Source: Fluviicola sp. (GTDB lineage Bacteria; Bacteroidota; Bacteroidia; Flavobacteriales_D; Crocinitomicaceae). From it: a DNA stretch of 64,000 bases. The position numbers and the translations under genes are program-made. Shown piece after piece: positions 56,045 through 64,000 of the stretch (position 1 is the first letter of the stretch; each line of letters begins with the position of its first letter). The stretch spans positions 160,370-224,369 of the forward strand of contig DATGWM010000014.1 in NCBI GenBank assembly GCA_035299485.1. Direction: 5' to 3'. The notes under the pieces were generated by a model. The model searched no databases, was not told the DNA's origin, and saw only the letters and a list, made by a program, of their open reading frames with translations.

Positions 56045-56389
56045 ATGTCATTTACACCAAAAGCCGAGCTACTCTATAAAGATGGCTCAAACCCAAAACA
56101 TTACTGCATTGCAGCTTCATTTGTTGAAACGGCAAATTACGGATTCGTAACTGCCTCCGAAGTACAAGATCATCCAGAAGAAGAAGATGGATATCTCGTT
56201 ACATACACTGTTGGCGACAATTCAAGAGGGGGTGATGAAATGGATGCTGATCTTGGAACCATTACCTTGGTCACAAGCACAGGATTCGTTGACGTTGAAT
56301 TTTACGATGAGCAATCTCATTTTTTAGGTAAAAAGCGTATCCGTACTGAAGAAGCACAAAAAGATACTAGACCAATTGAAGAGCGCTAA
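56045..56389 (+). CDS. Small acidic hypothetical protein
   Basis: 114-aa ORF with an A-rich translation initiation region and its own terminator; no signal peptide; charged tail GKKRIRTEEAQKDTRPIEER. Confidence 0.7.
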   Translation: MSFTPKAELLYKDGSNPKHYCIAASFVETANYGFVTASEVQDHPEEEDGYLVTYTVGDNSRGGDEMDADLGTITLVTSTGFVDVEFYDEQSHFLGKKRIRTEEAQKDTRPIEER

Positions 56390-56397
56390 TTTAGTGC

Positions 56398-56430
56398 AGC
56401 AGCAGAATTAAAAAATTCTGCTGCTTTTTT
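56398..56430 (+). terminator. Terminator between the small gene and the kinase
   Basis: Perfect 12-bp stem AGCAGCAGAATT/AATTCTGCTGCT followed by TTTTT. Confidence 0.85.
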
Positions 56431-56461
56431 GTACTTTGTGATGCCTAAGCGCTATAGCACT

Positions 56462-58543
56462 ATGAAAATCGTATTATTATTTCTTTCATTGATATGTGGT
56501 TTTTGTTTCGGACAAGAGACAGATGAACTGTCTTCGAAATTCAAGCATACAAATCAAGATCGTTTAAAGATGGCTTATGCATCTGAGCTTGCATGGAAAT
56601 TGCGAGATCAAAATCCAGATTCATCACTCTTTTATGCAAAAATTGCTCTACAATTATCTAAAAAATTGGGCGACAAAAAAACAGAAGCGTATAGCCTTTC
56701 TGACATTGGAACTTATTACAAACACCAAGAGCACTATACAGAAGCTCAAAAGTATTTTAAGAAAAGCTTACGTATTCGAAAAACCATTGGCGAGAATAAC
56801 GATATTGCCAGTGGTTATAATCAATTAGGACTATTATTCCGTCAACAGGAACAATACGATTCCGCAGTAGTCTATTTTCGAAAAGGAATCGACCTACTAC
56901 CTCATGAAAAATCCACTTTAAAATCCAATTTATTAGATGGATACGGCATGAGCCTACTTAATTTGGGGCAGTACAAACATGCATTACACTATATTCAACA
57001 ATCGTTGAAAATTGCAGAAGAATTGGAAGATTCTCTTTCCATAGCCAAATCACATCAAAATCTTGGAGTAATATATGTGAAACAGGGAGTTGCCAAATTG
57101 GCCTTGACAGAATTCAAATCAGCGGAACAGCTTTTTTCGATATTGAAGAATCAAAATGGGCTTTTGGAATCAATCATAAATCAAGCTTCGATCAATCAGC
57201 AACTAGGAAAGATCATAAATGCTGACAAAATGTACCAAAAAGCGGAACTGCTTAGTATTAAACACGGATTTCAAGATAACCTTCCTACCATATGGTTCAA
57301 TCGAGCAGAATTATTTTTAGAAAGTGACCCAAAAAAATCCATTTATTTCTATAAGAAAGCCTTAAAAAATGCTACTTCGTATGAAAAGCCTTTACTTAAA
57401 ACCGAATGTTTACTAGGGCTGATGGACGCATCAATTCGAGCAGACCAATTAAATGCTACGAAACAATGGAAATTACAGTTAGAAGAACAACCTCAACTTA
57501 ATCGCACAGCCATAAGAAAAGATTTCCTCGAATTATGCGTAAAATATTATCGCAAATCAGGAGACCTTGAGTCAGCTTTCAGATATAGCCAGGATTTATT
57601 AAAGGTCCGAGATAGTTTAGATAAGATCGTACTAAACAACCTTGAAACACTCTCTCTTCTTGAAAAATCACGAAACAAGGAAAAAATTGCTCGGGAAGAA
57701 ATAAATCGGCTGAAAGTAATAAAACAATCAGAAGAAGATCAGTCTCAAATGTGGTTTTTAACAATGGGAATAATCATGATACTCCTAATCGTTTCATTAA
57801 TCACGTTTTTCTTGATTTATAAAATCAGATTGGATAATAAGAATGCTGTCCTCAGGGAACAAGAGTTACAGCAAGAAATGACCGATTTAATTCATGAATC
57901 AGACCTTCGTGTAATGGAGGAGTCATTGTTAGTTGAAGGTAAAACCCGCAAAAACATTGGAAAAGATTTACACGATAATTTAGGTAGCAAGTTAGCCGTT
58001 GTACAAATCATGTTGGATTCTTTCCGCAGAAAAACAGAAGAATCTCGAATGGATCTTCAAGAAAAACTAGTAAAAGCAATTCAACTAATAGAAGACTCCT
58101 GTAATGACCTTAGGACCATATCAAGAAACATGGTTAATACAGGGATAAGTGAAACCAGTTTAGCAGACAGTGTCGACACCCTATGCCGATTCATATCTGA
58201 AAATTCGCAAATAGAGATAGTCTTTCACTATGAAAATGATATTGTTTTACAAGAAATGCATTGGCGAAAGAACATTTTATCCACCATTTCTTTGCTTTTA
58301 CACAACATTATTAAACATTCAGATGCATCCAAAGCAGAAATCACTCTATTAGGTGATGAAACACAACTTTCTATCATAATCAAAGACAATGGTAAAGGTT
58401 TCGACACAAATAAACTAGACCAAGTTGAAGGTGTCGGACTGCGAAATGCGAGAGAAAGAGTCGAAATAATGAAAGGCACAATTCAAATGACATCCGAAAA
58501 AGGAAGTGGAACCAATATACTCATACAATTACCCTCAAAATGA
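56462..58543 (+). CDS. TPR-containing sensor histidine kinase (HisKA_3/NarX type)
   Basis: Signal sequence, multiple TPRs (IASGYNQLG, IAKSHQNLG), TM helix, GKDLHDNLGS H-box, NIIKHSDA, IKDNGKGF, GVGL, GSGT. Confidence 0.92.
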   Translation: MKIVLLFLSLICGFCFGQETDELSSKFKHTNQDRLKMAYASELAWKLRDQNPDSSLFYAKIALQLSKKLGDKKTEAYSLSDIGTYYKHQEHYTEAQKYFKKSLRIRKTIGENNDIASGYNQLGLLFRQQEQYDSAVVYFRKGIDLLPHEKSTLKSNLLDGYGMSLLNLGQYKHALHYIQQSLKIAEELEDSLSIAKSHQNLGVIYVKQGVAKLALTEFKSAEQLFSILKNQNGLLESIINQASINQQLGKIINADKMYQKAELLSIKHGFQDNLPTIWFNRAELFLESDPKKSIYFYKKALKNATSYEKPLLKTECLLGLMDASIRADQLNATKQWKLQLEEQPQLNRTAIRKDFLELCVKYYRKSGDLESAFRYSQDLLKVRDSLDKIVLNNLETLSLLEKSRNKEKIAREEINRLKVIKQSEEDQSQMWFLTMGIIMILLIVSLITFFLIYKIRLDNKNAVLREQELQQEMTDLIHESDLRVMEESLLVEGKTRKNIGKDLHDNLGSKLAVVQIMLDSFRRKTEESRMDLQEKLVKAIQLIEDSCNDLRTISRNMVNTGISETSLADSVDTLCRFISENSQIEIVFHYENDIVLQEMHWRKNILSTISLLLHNIIKHSDASKAEITLLGDETQLSIIIKDNGKGFDTNKLDQVEGVGLRNARERVEIMKGTIQMTSEKGSGTNILIQLPSK

Positions 58544-59214
58544 TTAAACAAAAACCCTCTGTATTTATAGCAGACGATCACCAGATCGTAATTGACGCCA
58601 TTCGTTCCGAACTAGAAGATTTCGGAGAATCACTTCATTATTTGGGGAGTGCTACAAACGGTAAAGATGTTATTGATGTACTGAACCAGAAAAAGATTGA
58701 CCTCTTGATACTTGACATTAGTATGCCAGAACCTGATGGTCTTGAAATACTTCAGTACATTAAAGAGAACGGTATCAGAGTAAAAGTGCTTGTGTTAACA
58801 ATGCACGATGATCTCGCTCATGTTTCTGCAATGATGCGTCATGGCGCACATGGCTACATACTCAAGAATGAAGGTGCGCGATACGTTGTTGATGCAGTTA
58901 GCCATATTCTCGCTGGCAACAACTATTTTCCTAATGAAATATTGCAAAAATTGGCTGATGGTTTTGCTTCTGACTACTTTTCTATAAGTGATACTCCTGA
59001 AGAAAAAATCCGGAAATCAATTTCTGACGATGATGCACAGGTATTGGAATTATTAACCCTTGAGTATACCTCTAAGGAGATTGCGGATAAGATGAATGTT
59101 ACTAAGAAAGCTATAGATGCACGATTGAAGAAATTACGTGATAAAACCGGAACAACATCTGAAAAAGGATTGGTGGCTTTTGCTGTTCGAAACGGTTTTT
59201 CAGCAAAAGGATAA
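58540..59214 (+). CDS. NarL/LuxR family response regulator
   Basis: IADDHQIV, LILDISMPEPDG, VLTMH, GAHGYILK, C-terminal HTH TSKEIADKM; ATGA overlap with the kinase. Confidence 0.93.
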   Translation: MIKQKPSVFIADDHQIVIDAIRSELEDFGESLHYLGSATNGKDVIDVLNQKKIDLLILDISMPEPDGLEILQYIKENGIRVKVLVLTMHDDLAHVSAMMRHGAHGYILKNEGARYVVDAVSHILAGNNYFPNEILQKLADGFASDYFSISDTPEEKIRKSISDDDAQVLELLTLEYTSKEIADKMNVTKKAIDARLKKLRDKTGTTSEKGLVAFAVRNGFSAKG

Positions 59215-59343: not shown

Positions 59344-60297
59344 ATGTCAATGTATGAAAAAAGAAAAGCTCTTCTAATTGGAGTTAATGAATATGATTAT
59401 TACAATCGATTAAAAGGTTGTGAGAATGATGTTAGGATGATGGAAGAGGTCCTACAATGTCATGAGAAGGGAGATCCAAATTTCTCTATTTCCAAAGTTC
59501 TCAACGAGACTAACGATCACATAAAATCAGAAATCATCACACTTCTTAAAAGAGATGCAACGATGGCTCTTTTATACTTTTCTGGCCATGGAAACGTAAC
59601 TGATGAGGGTGGATTTATTTGTGGTCGAGACGTCTCAAAAGAAAACTCAGGAGTTTCGATGGATTGGATTATTGAGCAAATCAATAAATCTATTATTCCT
59701 GAAATTACTGTAATTCTTGATTGTTGCTTTGCTGGTGAAATAGCAAATGAAGAAACTGATGGTACTGTTTTCACAAGACTTAGAAAGGGTGTTACGATAC
59801 TTGCAGCGACCACAGAAAATGATACTGCTACAGAATTTTTGCGGAAAGGTGTATTCACTTCAATCCTTTATAACGGATTAAAAGGAGCGGCAAAGGACAT
59901 ATTGGGACATGTAACTGCTGTAAGTCTTTATAGCAACTCAGAATCTATACTTTCCCCATGGGAACAACGCCCTGTCTTTAAGTCATTTGTGAAGCAATTA
60001 ACACCCTTACGTTTTTGTCTACCAACGGTAAGAAAACGAATCCTTCGTCAAATGGTTCATGAACCATATTTTTCATCCAAAGAGAAATTAATTTCTCTTG
60101 ATTCCAAACTGTTAAAAGATGAATTCGGAACAATTGGCCAAGAAGAATTATACGCACTCGCTTCATTTGAAAAAGCTGGACTCCTAGAGTGTCCTGATAG
60201 AATCCCATTATTACAAGCAATTATTGAAAATAAAACCTGTGGATTATCTCCTTTCGGTAAACATGTTTGGGAGCTTTTCAGCAAAAGAAATATCTAA
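59344..60297 (+). CDS. Caspase-like (peptidase C14) protease
   Basis: RKALLIGVNEY, LKGCENDV, YFSGHG (His82), ILDCCFAG (Cys128), GVFT; about 80-aa C-terminal extension. Confidence 0.9.
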   Translation: MSMYEKRKALLIGVNEYDYYNRLKGCENDVRMMEEVLQCHEKGDPNFSISKVLNETNDHIKSEIITLLKRDATMALLYFSGHGNVTDEGGFICGRDVSKENSGVSMDWIIEQINKSIIPEITVILDCCFAGEIANEETDGTVFTRLRKGVTILAATTENDTATEFLRKGVFTSILYNGLKGAAKDILGHVTAVSLYSNSESILSPWEQRPVFKSFVKQLTPLRFCLPTVRKRILRQMVHEPYFSSKEKLISLDSKLLKDEFGTIGQEELYALASFEKAGLLECPDRIPLLQAIIENKTCGLSPFGKHVWELFSKRNI

Positions 60298-60316: not shown

Positions 60317-61330
60317 ATGAGCTCATACAGCAATAAAAGCACTTTACATGTACGAATTAAAAATTTTGTATCATGGATTGCTCCTCCAAAAGAAACTCGT
60401 GAGGCCATCAAAAAAAGATCCGACGAAGTAAGAGAGAAAATTAAAGCCGAAGCCGAAAAAGATGGAATAACCATTTCTCAAATGCCATATTCGGGCTCGT
60501 TTTCAACAAAGACTGGTTTAAGGCGCAATATGCGTGGAAATACGATTTTAGATGGTCAAGATGTTGACATACCATTTGTAGTTAAAAAAGATACTGAAAC
60601 AGAATTTGGTCCATTAATCAAACGATTTAAAAAGTATGCCCAGACTTGTTATCCAAACCATGAAATTGAAGAAACAAAAAGTTCCGTTAACATCGTATTC
60701 GAAAAAGACAATCTAACATTCGACATTGTTCCTATGTTCGAAGCAGATAAAGCTTCTTATCAAACATTAATTAGGGGCAACGGTGAGATAATTACAACCT
60801 CCATTGAAAAACATCGGGAATTTATTCGCAATCGTACTAAAGAAACAAAAGAATCTGATGGTATTGTAACATTCAATGACTGTATACGGTTACTGAAGTG
60901 GTGGAGAAGAGTAAAAGAAATTGAATGTGATGAAAACCTTTGCTTACCTAGTTTCTTAATCAATCTTCTCGGGGCACAAGCATATAACAATTGTAGTGAT
61001 GATACTACATACCCCCAGACATTAGCAAATTGGTTTTCATTCCTGGCAAGTACTGTCAGAAAAAAAGAAACTATTTGGTTTGACGACTATTACTCCAAAC
61101 CTGAACCTGACGAATATAAATCTTGGAATGTAATAGATCCAGTCATGCCTGGTAACAACATCGTCAAATCATGGCCAGGATATCAAGTCGATCAATTGGC
61201 AGATTGGCTACAAGAAGCTGCAGAAACTATGAACAGAGCAATTGTTGCTGACATGCAGGAACGTCACGCAGATAGCCTTGTCCATTTACAGCAATTATTC
61301 GGAACCATATTCTCTTCCCATTGCGATTAA
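60317..61330 (+). CDS. cdnC: CBASS CD-NTase, CdnC-like oligonucleotide cyclase
   Basis: SGSFSTKTGL, DVD, FDIVP catalytic motifs; TSIEKHREFI, RLLKWW, PSF, IDPV.P.NN match E. coli CdnC as I recall it. Confidence 0.9.
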   Translation: MSSYSNKSTLHVRIKNFVSWIAPPKETREAIKKRSDEVREKIKAEAEKDGITISQMPYSGSFSTKTGLRRNMRGNTILDGQDVDIPFVVKKDTETEFGPLIKRFKKYAQTCYPNHEIEETKSSVNIVFEKDNLTFDIVPMFEADKASYQTLIRGNGEIITTSIEKHREFIRNRTKETKESDGIVTFNDCIRLLKWWRRVKEIECDENLCLPSFLINLLGAQAYNNCSDDTTYPQTLANWFSFLASTVRKKETIWFDDYYSKPEPDEYKSWNVIDPVMPGNNIVKSWPGYQVDQLADWLQEAAETMNRAIVADMQERHADSLVHLQQLFGTIFSSHCD

Positions 61331-61346
61331 TCCTAATAAATAAATT

Positions 61347-61829
61347 ATGAGTGTATACACATTTAGCGGAACGGACAGTTATTCCGAGGCCGATGTAAAA
61401 GCCGTTATGCAAAATACCTATGAGGATATTATTGGGTTTGCGAATCGAAAGACGATAAGCTATGGTACAGCAGAATTGTGGATAGAAGAATTAACCTATG
61501 CTTTGAATAGAAAAATCGTCAAATTCTTTGAAGTCCAGTTGAAAAATCCTTCTGGTGAAATTTTCAAGAGTCATAGATATCATGTTGACTCCTATGGCTA
61601 TTTGTCCTCCGGATCATCATCCGGAGGAATAAACTACCATTCCTATCCTTCTGATACCACTGCTAGTTTATACATAGATTTTTTAGATAGTCTTTCCAAA
61701 AGCGATATCGATGAAATAATTAGAGATCGAGGTTGGGGAACAGGCTCTGCAATGAAAGGTAATGAGATTCACGACCGAAATTACGTAAGCAATAATTTGA
61801 GAATACAACGAACGGAAATAACAAAATAA
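61347..61829 (+). CDS. cap7: Bacterial HORMA domain protein
   Basis: 160 aa between the CD-NTase and the AAA ATPase; N-terminal YTFS.T.SYS and C-terminal DRNY...RIQRT resemble bacterial HORMA1. Confidence 0.8.
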   Translation: MSVYTFSGTDSYSEADVKAVMQNTYEDIIGFANRKTISYGTAELWIEELTYALNRKIVKFFEVQLKNPSGEIFKSHRYHVDSYGYLSSGSSSGGINYHSYPSDTTASLYIDFLDSLSKSDIDEIIRDRGWGTGSAMKGNEIHDRNYVSNNLRIQRTEITK

Positions 61830-61831
61830 CC

Positions 61832-62722
61832 ATGGAAGTTAAATTACAAGAACAGAAACATCCCAACAAAGCAGCGGAGTTAGCTTTTGATGAATTAATC
61901 GCTATTGACGGACAGAAAGAGATTTTACTTAATTCACTCGAACTGTTCTTCCATAAGGAGAAGATTGAACGATGGCGCCAACACCATCATTCAAGTGGAT
62001 TAAACTTCTTGAGTCACCTTAACAACGGAACTTCATTGATCATTTTATCCGGAGATGTTGGTTGCGGTAAGACAGCGCTTGCTCATTCCATTGGTACACC
62101 ACTTGGAAAACGAATTGATAAACGAATCACTGTTTTCGAAACACCGTCAAATATACGGGGAGCGGGTAGAGTCGGAGAAATATCGAATCGCATCACTGAT
62201 GCTTTTGAACAAGTCAAATCCAAATTAACATCCGACCAGACAGGAATTCTGATTATAGATGAGGCTGATGATCTTGCAACAGATCGTGATCAGAATCAGG
62301 CACATCATGAAGATCGCGCAGGACTTAATGTTCTGCTTAAACAGATCGATTTAATTGCACGAGAAAATGTTGCACTAGCCGTTATTCTGATAACGAACCG
62401 TCTTAAAGTACTAGATCCAGCTATTATACGTCGAGCCACTCAAATAATTGAGTTTGGAAGACCTGATGAAGCTGCAAGAAAATTGGTTTTCCAACATATG
62501 TTTAACGGTTCAGATTTGTCCGAAAAGGATTACGATGAACTTGTTAAAGCCAGCACTCATCCCAAAACACCTTATAGCTTTTCTGATCTTATTCAAAAGG
62601 TTGGAAGGCAATCATTATTTAGTGCGATTCAAAGTGATCAACCATTCGGTAAAGACATCTACCTGACAACGATAAAGAATACGAAACCCTCACCAATTCT
62701 GAAACAAGATGAAAACAGATAA
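61832..62722 (+). CDS. cap6: TRIP13/Pch2-like AAA+ ATPase
   Basis: GDVGCGKT Walker A, RGAGRVGE, IIDEADDL Walker B, HHEDR, TNRL.VLDPAI.RR. Confidence 0.92.
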   Translation: MEVKLQEQKHPNKAAELAFDELIAIDGQKEILLNSLELFFHKEKIERWRQHHHSSGLNFLSHLNNGTSLIILSGDVGCGKTALAHSIGTPLGKRIDKRITVFETPSNIRGAGRVGEISNRITDAFEQVKSKLTSDQTGILIIDEADDLATDRDQNQAHHEDRAGLNVLLKQIDLIARENVALAVILITNRLKVLDPAIIRRATQIIEFGRPDEAARKLVFQHMFNGSDLSEKDYDELVKASTHPKTPYSFSDLIQKVGRQSLFSAIQSDQPFGKDIYLTTIKNTKPSPILKQDENR

Positions 62723-64000
62723 GTCAACAATTGTCATCGCTCACTACGGCTTGGACAGAAGAATCACAAGAGAAGAATGTCTGGCGACTCTAGCACCAGG
62801 AGAAAAAGAGGGAGCTATTTTCATCGATTTTGAAGCTGGTAATGCTAAGCTCAGCGAACTTTATGAGTTATCGTTTGATAATATAGCACTATTCCAACAG
62901 CGCAAATTTGCTGAATTAGTGAAGCCTAAGCTAGATGAGTATCCGGATGCAAGAATTGCATATTTTGGATATGTTCCAATCCCTATTGCATTTCACTTCG
63001 GTTACCTACTTGGCAATACGCATCCCTACACAATTTACCAGCTCCACCATAAAACCAATAAGTGGTATAAGGAAACTCAAAAGCCATCCGAAGACTATGT
63101 GTTTTCAATACAACCATTACTACTCCCGACTGAAAATCAAAAAGGAAAAGGTGAGGTTGTTATCCGTGTGGGAACTTCTTTCGAAATTGACACACAGTCA
63201 ACGTATGAAGTTATTTCCAATCCTGAAAACGAATTTGACATTAGCCTAACCCAACCGCATGTAGACTCCTTATATGATCAGAAGAACATATCAGATGTAG
63301 TTGAAGCCTTTCAGGAGGTTTTAAATGCATATGCGAATAAATTGAGTGACCGGGAGAAAATTCATTTGTTTATTGCCTCTTCGTGTGGACTGCCATTTGC
63401 TTTAGGGACCAGGATTAATCCGAACATTTATCCATATATACAGACTTATCAATTTAGCAGAAATGAATCACCAAAATATAAAGAGGCTGTTCTAGTTACA
63501 AAGGAAGTCGATGATCGTATTATTCTTTCCGAAAGCGATCGACTGATTGCAAAAGGCATCCGGGACAAATGGTATGACCAGCTGGAAAACGGATTGAAGC
63601 CATTTATAGAGACAATCGCAGGGAAAAAATCGGACAATTGGTTACAAATGCTATGTACTGACGAAGAGTACCAAACCGTCAGTCAACATCTATGTCACCC
63701 TTGGAATTCCGTTACGGATATAAACAAAACCAGTCTTAAACATGATTCCATTGACACAGAAAGAGTGGATGTTGATGATAGCTTTGAATACATTGAGAAA
63801 ACAAATACTTGGCTTCTCGATGATGGATTTTTGTTTGGACTGAGCAATAGACTCAACAAAAAGCCAGAAACGGATGTTATGCAGGCAGCTCGATTGTTTT
63901 TCTTCCATGAGGCCCTTCACTACAGCATTGAAGGACATCGATTAACTAGAGAAATCGCCAACGGTATTGGCCAATTTCCAAAGGTTATAGAAGAAGCCGA
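62709..64000 (+). CDS. SAVED domain fused to a C-terminal HExxH putative metallopeptidase (partial, runs off right edge)
   Basis: Not in ORF track; 430 codons without a stop. SAVED motifs IAYFGYVPIPIAFHFGYLL and IHLFIASSCGLPFALGTRIN; FFFHEALHY (HEALH at 63906-63920) followed by KVIEEAD. Confidence 0.85.
   Translation, partial: MKTDKSTIVIAHYGLDRRITREECLATLAPGEKEGAIFIDFEAGNAKLSELYELSFDNIALFQQRKFAELVKPKLDEYPDARIAYFGYVPIPIAFHFGYLLGNTHPYTIYQLHHKTNKWYKETQKPSEDYVFSIQPLLLPTENQKGKGEVVIRVGTSFEIDTQSTYEVISNPENEFDISLTQPHVDSLYDQKNISDVVEAFQEVLNAYANKLSDREKIHLFIASSCGLPFALGTRINPNIYPYIQTYQFSRNESPKYKEAVLVTKEVDDRIILSESDRLIAKGIRDKWYDQLENGLKPFIETIAGKKSDNWLQMLCTDEEYQTVSQHLCHPWNSVTDINKTSLKHDSIDTERVDVDDSFEYIEKTNTWLLDDGFLFGLSNRLNKKPETDVMQAARLFFFHEALHYSIEGHRLTREIANGIGQFPKVIEEA

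Follow-up and report, generated by a model that had tools for sequence, protein, structure and literature searches.

A SAVED-HExxH protein encoded at the effector position of a type III CBASS locus in Fluviicola sp. and its linkage to a caspase-like gene

Introduction

How would a bacterium arrest its growth or die by means of a protein in which a cyclic-oligonucleotide sensor is joined to a domain with an HExxH motif, and does such a protein act alone or together with a second protease? This question is raised by a 64,000-nucleotide stretch of DNA from Fluviicola sp. (assembly GCA_035299485.1, contig DATGWM010000014.1, positions 160370-224369; hereafter the window, in whose numbering all gene positions are given), at the end of which a gene for a SAVED-HExxH protein closes an operon of a cyclic-oligonucleotide-based antiphage signalling system (CBASS). 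Among CBASS effectors, the way of killing has been worked out for nucleases, phospholipases, pore-forming proteins, TIR proteins and nucleosidases. In contrast, our full-text literature search turned up no experimental characterisation of a SAVED-metallopeptidase CBASS effector, nor of any CBASS effector of the metalloprotease type, though the family is common.

Here we describe the effector, its operon and its neighbours. With a probability of about 0.5, we consider the protein to be a zinc hydrolase gated by a cyclic oligonucleotide, and most likely a peptidase, which serves as a stand-alone CBASS effector. In the lineage of the window it probably works with, or upstream of, a caspase-like executioner encoded in the same gene block. 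We also report an unexpected caspase linkage of this effector family, which is catalogued but, as far as we could find, unstudied.

Results

The effector gene and its sensor domain

The effector gene starts with an ATG at position 62709 of the forward strand, shares 14 nucleotides with the preceding TRIP13 gene up to the stop of the latter, and stays open through the window end (62709-64000, the first 430 of 596 codons). An earlier reading of the window made from its letters alone (the sequence-only reading) had attributed the absence of this gene from a program-made list of open reading frames (ORFs) to the lack of a stop in the window, and this explanation proved right. Completion of the frame in the contig, which that reading had proposed, gave a protein of 596 amino acids, with the stop located about 499 nucleotides past the window end.

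The N-terminal part of the protein, approximately 265 residues, had been read as a SAVED domain, and Pfam, NCBIfam and Foldseek agree on that. The cyclic-oligonucleotide sensor covers residues 4-264 (62718-63500, forward strand), as delimited by NCBIfam NF033611 (E 5e-41), with Pfam PF18145 spanning residues 64-261 (E 4e-36). In Foldseek searches with the model of the full-length protein, the SAVED domains of Cap5, Cap14 and 3TM-SAVED proteins were matched with E values from 1e-13 to 1e-11, and that of SAVED-CHAT with an E value of 1e-9. Clearly, residues 1-265 are a genuine SAVED domain.

The protein had also been described as unannotated, which we could not uphold. The PADLOC model PDLC00754, labelled 'Effector / Peptidase', aligns its positions 4-592, out of 598, with residues 4-592 of the effector (E 5.7e-186). 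Taken alone, the last 329 residues still match PDLC00754 (E 9.5e-98) as well as its sister model PDLC02018, labelled 'SAVED_peptidaseM48' (E 1.5e-11). Thus, the family is already present in catalogues of defence genes, with bioinformatic labels only; both labels imply the same CBASS effector role that we propose, but the 'M48' part of the second name was not reproducible, as described below. A database clustered at 90% identity contained 233 matches to the effector, with at least 59% identity throughout the best 120 of the 233. The family as a whole comprises 241 clusters at 50% identity, and is common in Bacteroidota and beyond.

Conservation of the HExxH motif

The sequence-only reading had pointed to an HExxH motif with acidic residues 24-27 positions further on, and the residues are indeed there. 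The motif (H400-E401-A-L-H404, 63906-63920) is part of a longer segment, HEALHYSIEGH (63906-63938, forward strand), which includes H410, and is preceded by R395 five residues upstream (63891-63893, forward strand). The acidic block E428-E-A-D431-Y-Q-A-D435, a candidate source of a third metal ligand, starts at 63990-64000 of the same strand and extends past the window. Its residues E428, E429 and D431 are 24, 25 and 27 residues away from H404, respectively, and the codon of D431 straddles the window end.

Conservation was counted in 127 representatives of clusters at 50% identity, aligned to the hidden Markov model (HMM) of the family. H404 was present in all 127 representatives, E401 in 126 and H400 in 123. 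In the acidic block, D431 and D435 were each kept in 126/127 representatives, E428 in 124 and Y432 in 122. A histidine or glutamine occupied the position of H410 in 120 representatives, and R395 was found in 115. Further conserved residues of the effector in this set are F476, R489, R490, R493, W497, P524, R539 and R564. As judged by these alignments, the conservation of HExxH is far beyond chance. Since the motif and the acidic residues are kept in homologues down to approximately 22% identity, the doubt voiced in the sequence-only reading, namely that the motif might not be conserved, could be put aside.

One sub-clade departs from this pattern. In L057c, P0203, P0205, P0246 and P0247, S, A, R or Y stands in place of the first histidine of HExxH, but H404 and the EADYQADV block are retained, as is E401 in all of them but P0247; L057c (gene L057:9907-11688) is encoded in an intact kinase-regulator-caspase-CBASS operon of the kind found in the window. 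Such proteins look as if the C-terminal domain were mainly a non-catalytic adaptor or scaffold, which, once SAVED has bound the signal, recruits or allosterically activates another protein (here, the caspase) and in which HExxH is vestigial or structural. We consider a mainly adaptor-like role distinctly unlikely. It is at odds with the retention of H400, E401 and H404 in 123-127 of the 127 representatives, and also with the distribution of the gene, as shown below.

The CBASS operon and its distribution

The assignment of the protein to the effector position of a CBASS operon, made in the sequence-only reading, was confirmed by the genes that precede it on the same strand. The first of them (60317-61330) encodes a CdnC-like CD-NTase, recognised by NF041116 (266.5 bits against a cut-off of 200), PF18144 (E 2.5e-15) and the PADLOC Cyclase model (E 4.8e-121). 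It is followed by a gene for a HORMA protein of the bacterial type (61347-61829; 73.7 bits with PF18138, cut-off 35.6) and by one for a TRIP13-like AAA+ ATPase of the Cap6 type (61832-62722; PADLOC TRIP13, E 1.7e-91, and Pfam AAA). All these genes are contiguous on the forward strand, and the effector gene is the last of them. The locus is a type III CBASS with a SAVED protein in the effector position.

The sequence closest to the CD-NTase in PDB is that of CdnC from E. coli MS115-1 (6p80, E 6e-22). The latter enzyme makes cAAA. As the cyclase is closest to CdnC, cA3 is a reasonable, though unproven, guess for the ligand of the effector. The type III CBASS of E. coli MS115-1 (CdnC-HORMA-TRIP13-NucC) has the same trio of sensor and regulator genes as the window, but its effector is a separate cAAA-activated nuclease, NucC, whereas in the window SAVED-HExxH comes after the trio, and genes for a kinase, a regulator and a caspase lie ahead of the operon.

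The CD-NTase-HORMA-TRIP13-effector operon was found in 21 out of 34 loci of species-representative genomes, with approximately four more carrying partial versions, and about 30 further metagenome loci contained the four-gene operon, either whole or as a part truncated by the contig end. In other loci the effector gene follows a gene for a CD-NTase of about 405 amino acids and a small E2-like gene, or lies beside CD-NTase-Cap2-Cap3 genes of type II. Both flanks were readable in 24 metagenome loci, of which 12 were type III, 9 had SAVED-HExxH in other contexts and 3 had the HExxH domain without SAVED. In the caspase-free loci whose neighbours we inspected there was no other effector candidate, and at these loci the protein must therefore be capable of acting by itself. 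About 90% of the loci with readable flanks have neither a caspase nor another effector candidate, which is difficult to reconcile with a domain that would serve only to recruit or activate a partner.

The HExxH domain also occurs without SAVED. A 413-amino-acid protein with this domain is encoded by the last gene of an unannotated operon for proteins of 448, 581 and 413 amino acids (L042:2510-6842; also in L043-L045). The three genes had no Pfam match and no convincing PADLOC match beyond the models of the effector domain. Possibly, this operon is another uncharacterised defence system that shares the output domain.

Fold and relationships of the C-terminal domain

The AlphaFold models of the effector were very confident, with a predicted local distance difference test score (pLDDT) of 94 for the full-length protein and 95.3 for residues 268-596. 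The C-terminal domain is predicted to begin with a long linker helix and small helices, which are followed by a beta-hairpin (359-370), a helix (372-382) and the helix of HExxH (390-405), with the motif at its C-terminal end. Then come a loop with H410, a long helix (424-449) whose N-terminus is formed by the E428-E-A-D431-Y-Q-A-D435 block, further helices, and a beta-rich C-terminal part. The predicted succession of beta-hairpin, helix, HExxH helix and a helix with E428, D431 and D435 speaks for a hydrolytic metal site, and the effector function is supported by the operon components that scored above curated thresholds. The name 'Peptidase' given to the family in PADLOC fits a peptidase.

Several observations weigh against a zinc peptidase. 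The model of the C-terminal domain had no match at E<=0.001 in Foldseek searches of PDB and BFVD, either to a zincin or to any other protein. The best weak match in PDB was to a putative zinc peptidase, 3c37 (E 1.6, TM 0.15-0.19), and 6 out of 40 weak PDB matches were zincins (3c37, deuterolysin, two lethal-factor entries, selecase and jannalysin), which we take as a hint and not as evidence. Pfam, NCBIfam and PHROGs searches with the C-terminal domain alone gave no match. Among 83 family members scanned with Pfam at E<=5 there were only scattered single matches, with no recurrent domain and no peptidase family. Searches of PDB sequences and profiles with alignments of the whole protein and of the core domain returned SAVED matches or noise only. 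Profile comparisons (hhalign) with M48 peptidases of E. coli and with CapP-like M78 peptidases gave scores within the range of the negative controls. To these points should be added the sub-clade that lacks the first histidine of HExxH and yet was retained, once in a caspase-linked operon, an unusual abundance of invariant arginines, and the uncertainty of the ligand, as the closest SAVED structures bind cyclic dinucleotides. The zincin fold suggested in the sequence-only reading was thus not recovered by Foldseek or by profile comparison.

The M48 label could be rejected. The hhalign score of the family profile with E. coli HtpX, LoiP, BepA and YcaL was 19, with only the motif aligned, while 13 unrelated proteins used as controls scored 9-22 (SprT, an HExxH protein, was added as a comparator); the score of M48 was therefore indistinguishable from the controls. 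The His-to-Glu spacing of M48 peptidases is also unlike the 24 residues of the effector.

The comparison with M78 peptidases (ImmA/IrrE/CapP) could be made directly, because CapP-like M78 peptidases are encoded beside many related CBASS operons. The M78 model of Pfam, PF06114, did not match the effector or any of the 83 family members, and the alignment of the family profile with 10 CapP-like M78 sequences was not significant (hhalign probability 0.4%, score 17.3). However, two motif blocks could be aligned colinearly between the families. The segments aRLFFFHEALHYSIEGHR and IEEADYQAD of the effector align, in the same order, with gRFTLAHELGHFFIDEHR and IENEADYFAS of CapP-like proteins, as R-x4-HExxH-x5-HR and E-EADY-x-A, respectively, and the observed block scores were reached by 7/200 and 10/200 column shuffles. 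In the effector the distance from HExxH to the glutamate is 23-24 residues, in contrast to 27-31 in M78. In addition, the effector domain far exceeds that of M78 in size, its C-terminal part is rich in beta-strands, and IrrE and ImmA were absent among its Foldseek matches. These alignments are suggestive of M78 as the best analogue of the effector at the level of motifs, and not as its family.

R395 and H400 are spaced as in the Rx4-6H motif of HEPN ribonucleases, R395 is kept in 115/127 representatives and the domain is largely helical, as if the protein were a SAVED analogue of the CARF-HEPN proteins Csm6 and Csx1. This appears very improbable, since E401 and H404, neither of which is needed in HEPN, are no less invariant than H400, the residues that follow R395 (LFFF) are hydrophobic and not polar as in HEPN, and no HEPN protein was found among the Foldseek matches, where zincins were present. 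Moreover, an arginine five residues ahead of HExxH is also a feature of CapP-like M78 peptidases.

A more serious alternative, which we nevertheless regard as unlikely, is a metal-dependent hydrolase or transferase whose substrate is not a protein but, for instance, a nucleotide, an NAD-like cofactor or a nucleic acid; the HExxH domain would then kill by depleting or degrading this substrate. Six nearly invariant arginines (R395, R489, R490, R493, R539 and R564) would, together with aromatic residues, surround the cluster of acidic residues and histidines. So many arginines are not what is usually seen in a peptidase and would fit a substrate with phosphates, which keeps a non-protein substrate in play; the fold, too, is unlike that of any solved peptidase. 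On the other hand, HExxH followed by a helix with Glu and Asp is the classic signature of zincin peptidases, the weak Foldseek matches were enriched for zincins and not for nucleases or NADases, and the motif blocks resemble those of M78 peptidases.

The caspase-like gene and the two-component block

Upstream of the CD-NTase gene, on the same strand, lies a gene for a caspase-like Peptidase_C14 protein with an extra C-terminal domain (59344-60297), in which the motifs of the catalytic dyad, YFSGHG and DCCFAG, are both present. It is preceded by genes for a LuxR/GerE-type response regulator (58540-59214), which is kept ahead of the caspase gene in every caspase-linked locus, and for a histidine kinase composed, according to domain searches, of TPR, HisKA_3 and HATPase parts (56429-58543), which is likewise conserved with the caspase. 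A signal-like segment at the N-terminus of the kinase and another hydrophobic one that follows its TPR region make it probable that the TPR part is extracytoplasmic. The block is headed by a conserved ORF of 114 amino acids with no assigned function (56045-56389, forward strand), whose HMM ('X115') has matches in L061, L122 and L130. The 114-amino-acid ORF, the kinase and the regulator occupy the place taken in other CBASS operons by regulators of the CapW or CapH/CapP type.

Homologues of the caspase at 39-86% identity were accompanied by the SAVED-HExxH gene, the TPR histidine kinase and the response regulator in 7 out of 7 distinct neighbourhoods that could be read, in addition to the window. 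The order of genes in the caspase-linked loci is an ORF of about 115 amino acids, the TPR kinase, the response regulator, the caspase and a SAVED protein of about 590 amino acids. The CD-NTase-HORMA-TRIP13 genes either separate the caspase from the effector, follow the latter, or are missing. HExxH was kept in 6 out of 7 caspase-linked effectors, which are spread over four or more separate clades in the effector tree. In this lineage the caspase-like protease is a likely partner or substrate of the effector. The same linkage would also suit a non-catalytic adaptor that activates the caspase. Conversely, we had to reject the caspase as a fixed partner of the effector, since a caspase was found in none of the 34 genome loci and in 3 out of 80 metagenome loci (in 2 of the 24 with both flanks readable).

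A more distant homologue of the caspase (34% identity over 97% of the length, E 2e-54) adjoins a ThsB_TIR gene, which is the architecture of type IV Thoeris. The caspase of the window aligns with this TIR-linked protein throughout, its C-terminal domain and its His and Cys motifs included. No TIR was found in any ORF between 56045 and the end of the window, nor in the downstream part of the contig or the seven related caspase-linked loci. The type IV Thoeris caspase is switched on by N7-cADPR, and its C-terminal domain has been proposed as the sensor (bioRxiv 10.1101/2024.10.24.620036). If the HExxH domain acted on a non-protein substrate, then in the caspase-linked operons it might make a second small-molecule signal read by the C-terminal domain of the caspase, in a way similar to that proposed for N7-cADPR. 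This variant would be supported by the retention of this domain by the caspase, even though TIR is absent, and by the adjacency of the caspase and SAVED-HExxH genes even where the cyclase has moved or is missing.

A conserved ORF of 56 amino acids (MERKPLGTKAGTGETCPESGIWKVV...) starts about 90 nucleotides past the effector stop, outside the window (L003:6962-7132). It shows 70-84% identity and occurs only in the closer caspase-linked loci, where it may follow the effector or separate the caspase from the cyclase; approximately 100 caspase-free loci lack it.

Further downstream (L003:7627-11990) lies a type II CBASS, which encodes a CD-NTase of 341 amino acids, a Cap2-like E1/E2 protein of 575, a Cap3-like JAB protein of 166 and an HNH-SAVED Cap5-like protein of 371. 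The presence of this second CBASS makes the region a defence island. In the locus of the closest relative (L046:8822-13263) the effector gene is followed by a short CBASS with a DncV-like CD-NTase and E2-CBASS, by a gene for a Peptidase_C14 protein of 368 amino acids, which is a second caspase-like gene in a CBASS context, and by a gene for a Y4kD_C protein.

The upstream neighbours of related CBASS operons are regulators commonly seen with CBASS, namely genes for WYL proteins, pairs of HTH and ImmA genes, or a divergent three-gene cassette that includes a CapP-like peptidase gene. The cassette (L008, L016-L021 and L025, at about 3.6-6.2 kb) encodes proteins of about 225, 117 and 267 amino acids, the last of them with the HExxH...EADYFA motifs of M78/CapP-like peptidases, and is presumably a regulator module.

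Discussion

The gene order of the operon, the architecture of the effector and the conservation of its motif can be fitted into the following scheme. Upon phage infection the HORMA protein would activate the CdnC-like CD-NTase, and TRIP13 would reset it. The product of the CD-NTase would be a cyclic oligonucleotide, probably 3'3'3'-cAAA, which would bind to the N-terminal SAVED domain of the effector and probably cause its oligomerisation, as in other SAVED effectors. The binding would switch on the C-terminal domain of about 330 residues, in which H400-E401-x-x-H404, H/Q410 and E428/D431/D435 may form a hydrolytic site with a metal, probably zinc. The most likely chemistry would be the cleavage of peptide bonds at a gluzincin-like site, with motifs most similar to those of the M78/ImmA-IrrE-CapP peptidases, and the expected outcome would be the growth arrest or death of the infected cell.

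Such a scheme has parallels among the known SAVED effectors. In Cap5 (HNH-SAVED) and Cap4 (nuclease-SAVED), SAVED senses the products of CD-NTases and controls the toxic domain attached to it, as we propose here, and the SAVED structures of such effectors (7rwm, 7rwk and 8fm1) are the closest to that of the protein studied here. However, the effector domain of Cap5 and Cap4 is an N-terminal nuclease, whereas in the protein studied here it is C-terminal, has HExxH and is unrelated. SAVED-CHAT (8tl0) is arranged like our effector, with an N-terminal SAVED and a C-terminal protease-like domain, and a second, caspase-like protease is encoded alongside it, as in the window. It forms a cascade with PCaspase in type III-B CRISPR, as summarised in bioRxiv 10.1101/2024.10.24.620036. 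The two systems differ in the output domain, which is the cysteine protease CHAT in one case and an HExxH domain of unmatched fold in the other, and in the source of the signal, which is Cas10 of CRISPR for SAVED-CHAT and a CD-NTase for the effector. As for the caspase, it resembles the effector of type IV Thoeris in its C-terminal domain and catalytic His and Cys motifs, but, unlike it, has no TIR gene nearby and is accompanied by SAVED-HExxH and the pair of TPR kinase and response regulator in every neighbourhood read.

For the caspase-linked loci we tentatively propose, as a possibility that should be held with some doubt, a relay of two proteases, in which the activated SAVED-HExxH protein would switch on the Thoeris-IV-type caspase by cleavage, by direct binding or through a second small-molecule signal, with the whole unit being under the transcriptional control of the envelope-facing TPR kinase and the LuxR-type regulator. 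If true, this relay would be the CBASS counterpart of the CRISPR cascade that leads from SAVED-CHAT to PCaspase, and would use a metalloprotease-like domain of a previously unseen fold.

As the catalytic domain of the effector has no solved structural relative, its structure and its substrate would add a new effector mechanism to those known for CBASS. The roles of CBASS-associated caspase-like proteases were stated to be unknown (bioRxiv 10.1101/2024.10.24.620036). The constant association of the caspase with the effector and the two-component system in the neighbourhoods that we read offers a testable route to such a role, and the effector-caspase pair may be a second case in which bacterial immunity makes use of a protease cascade.

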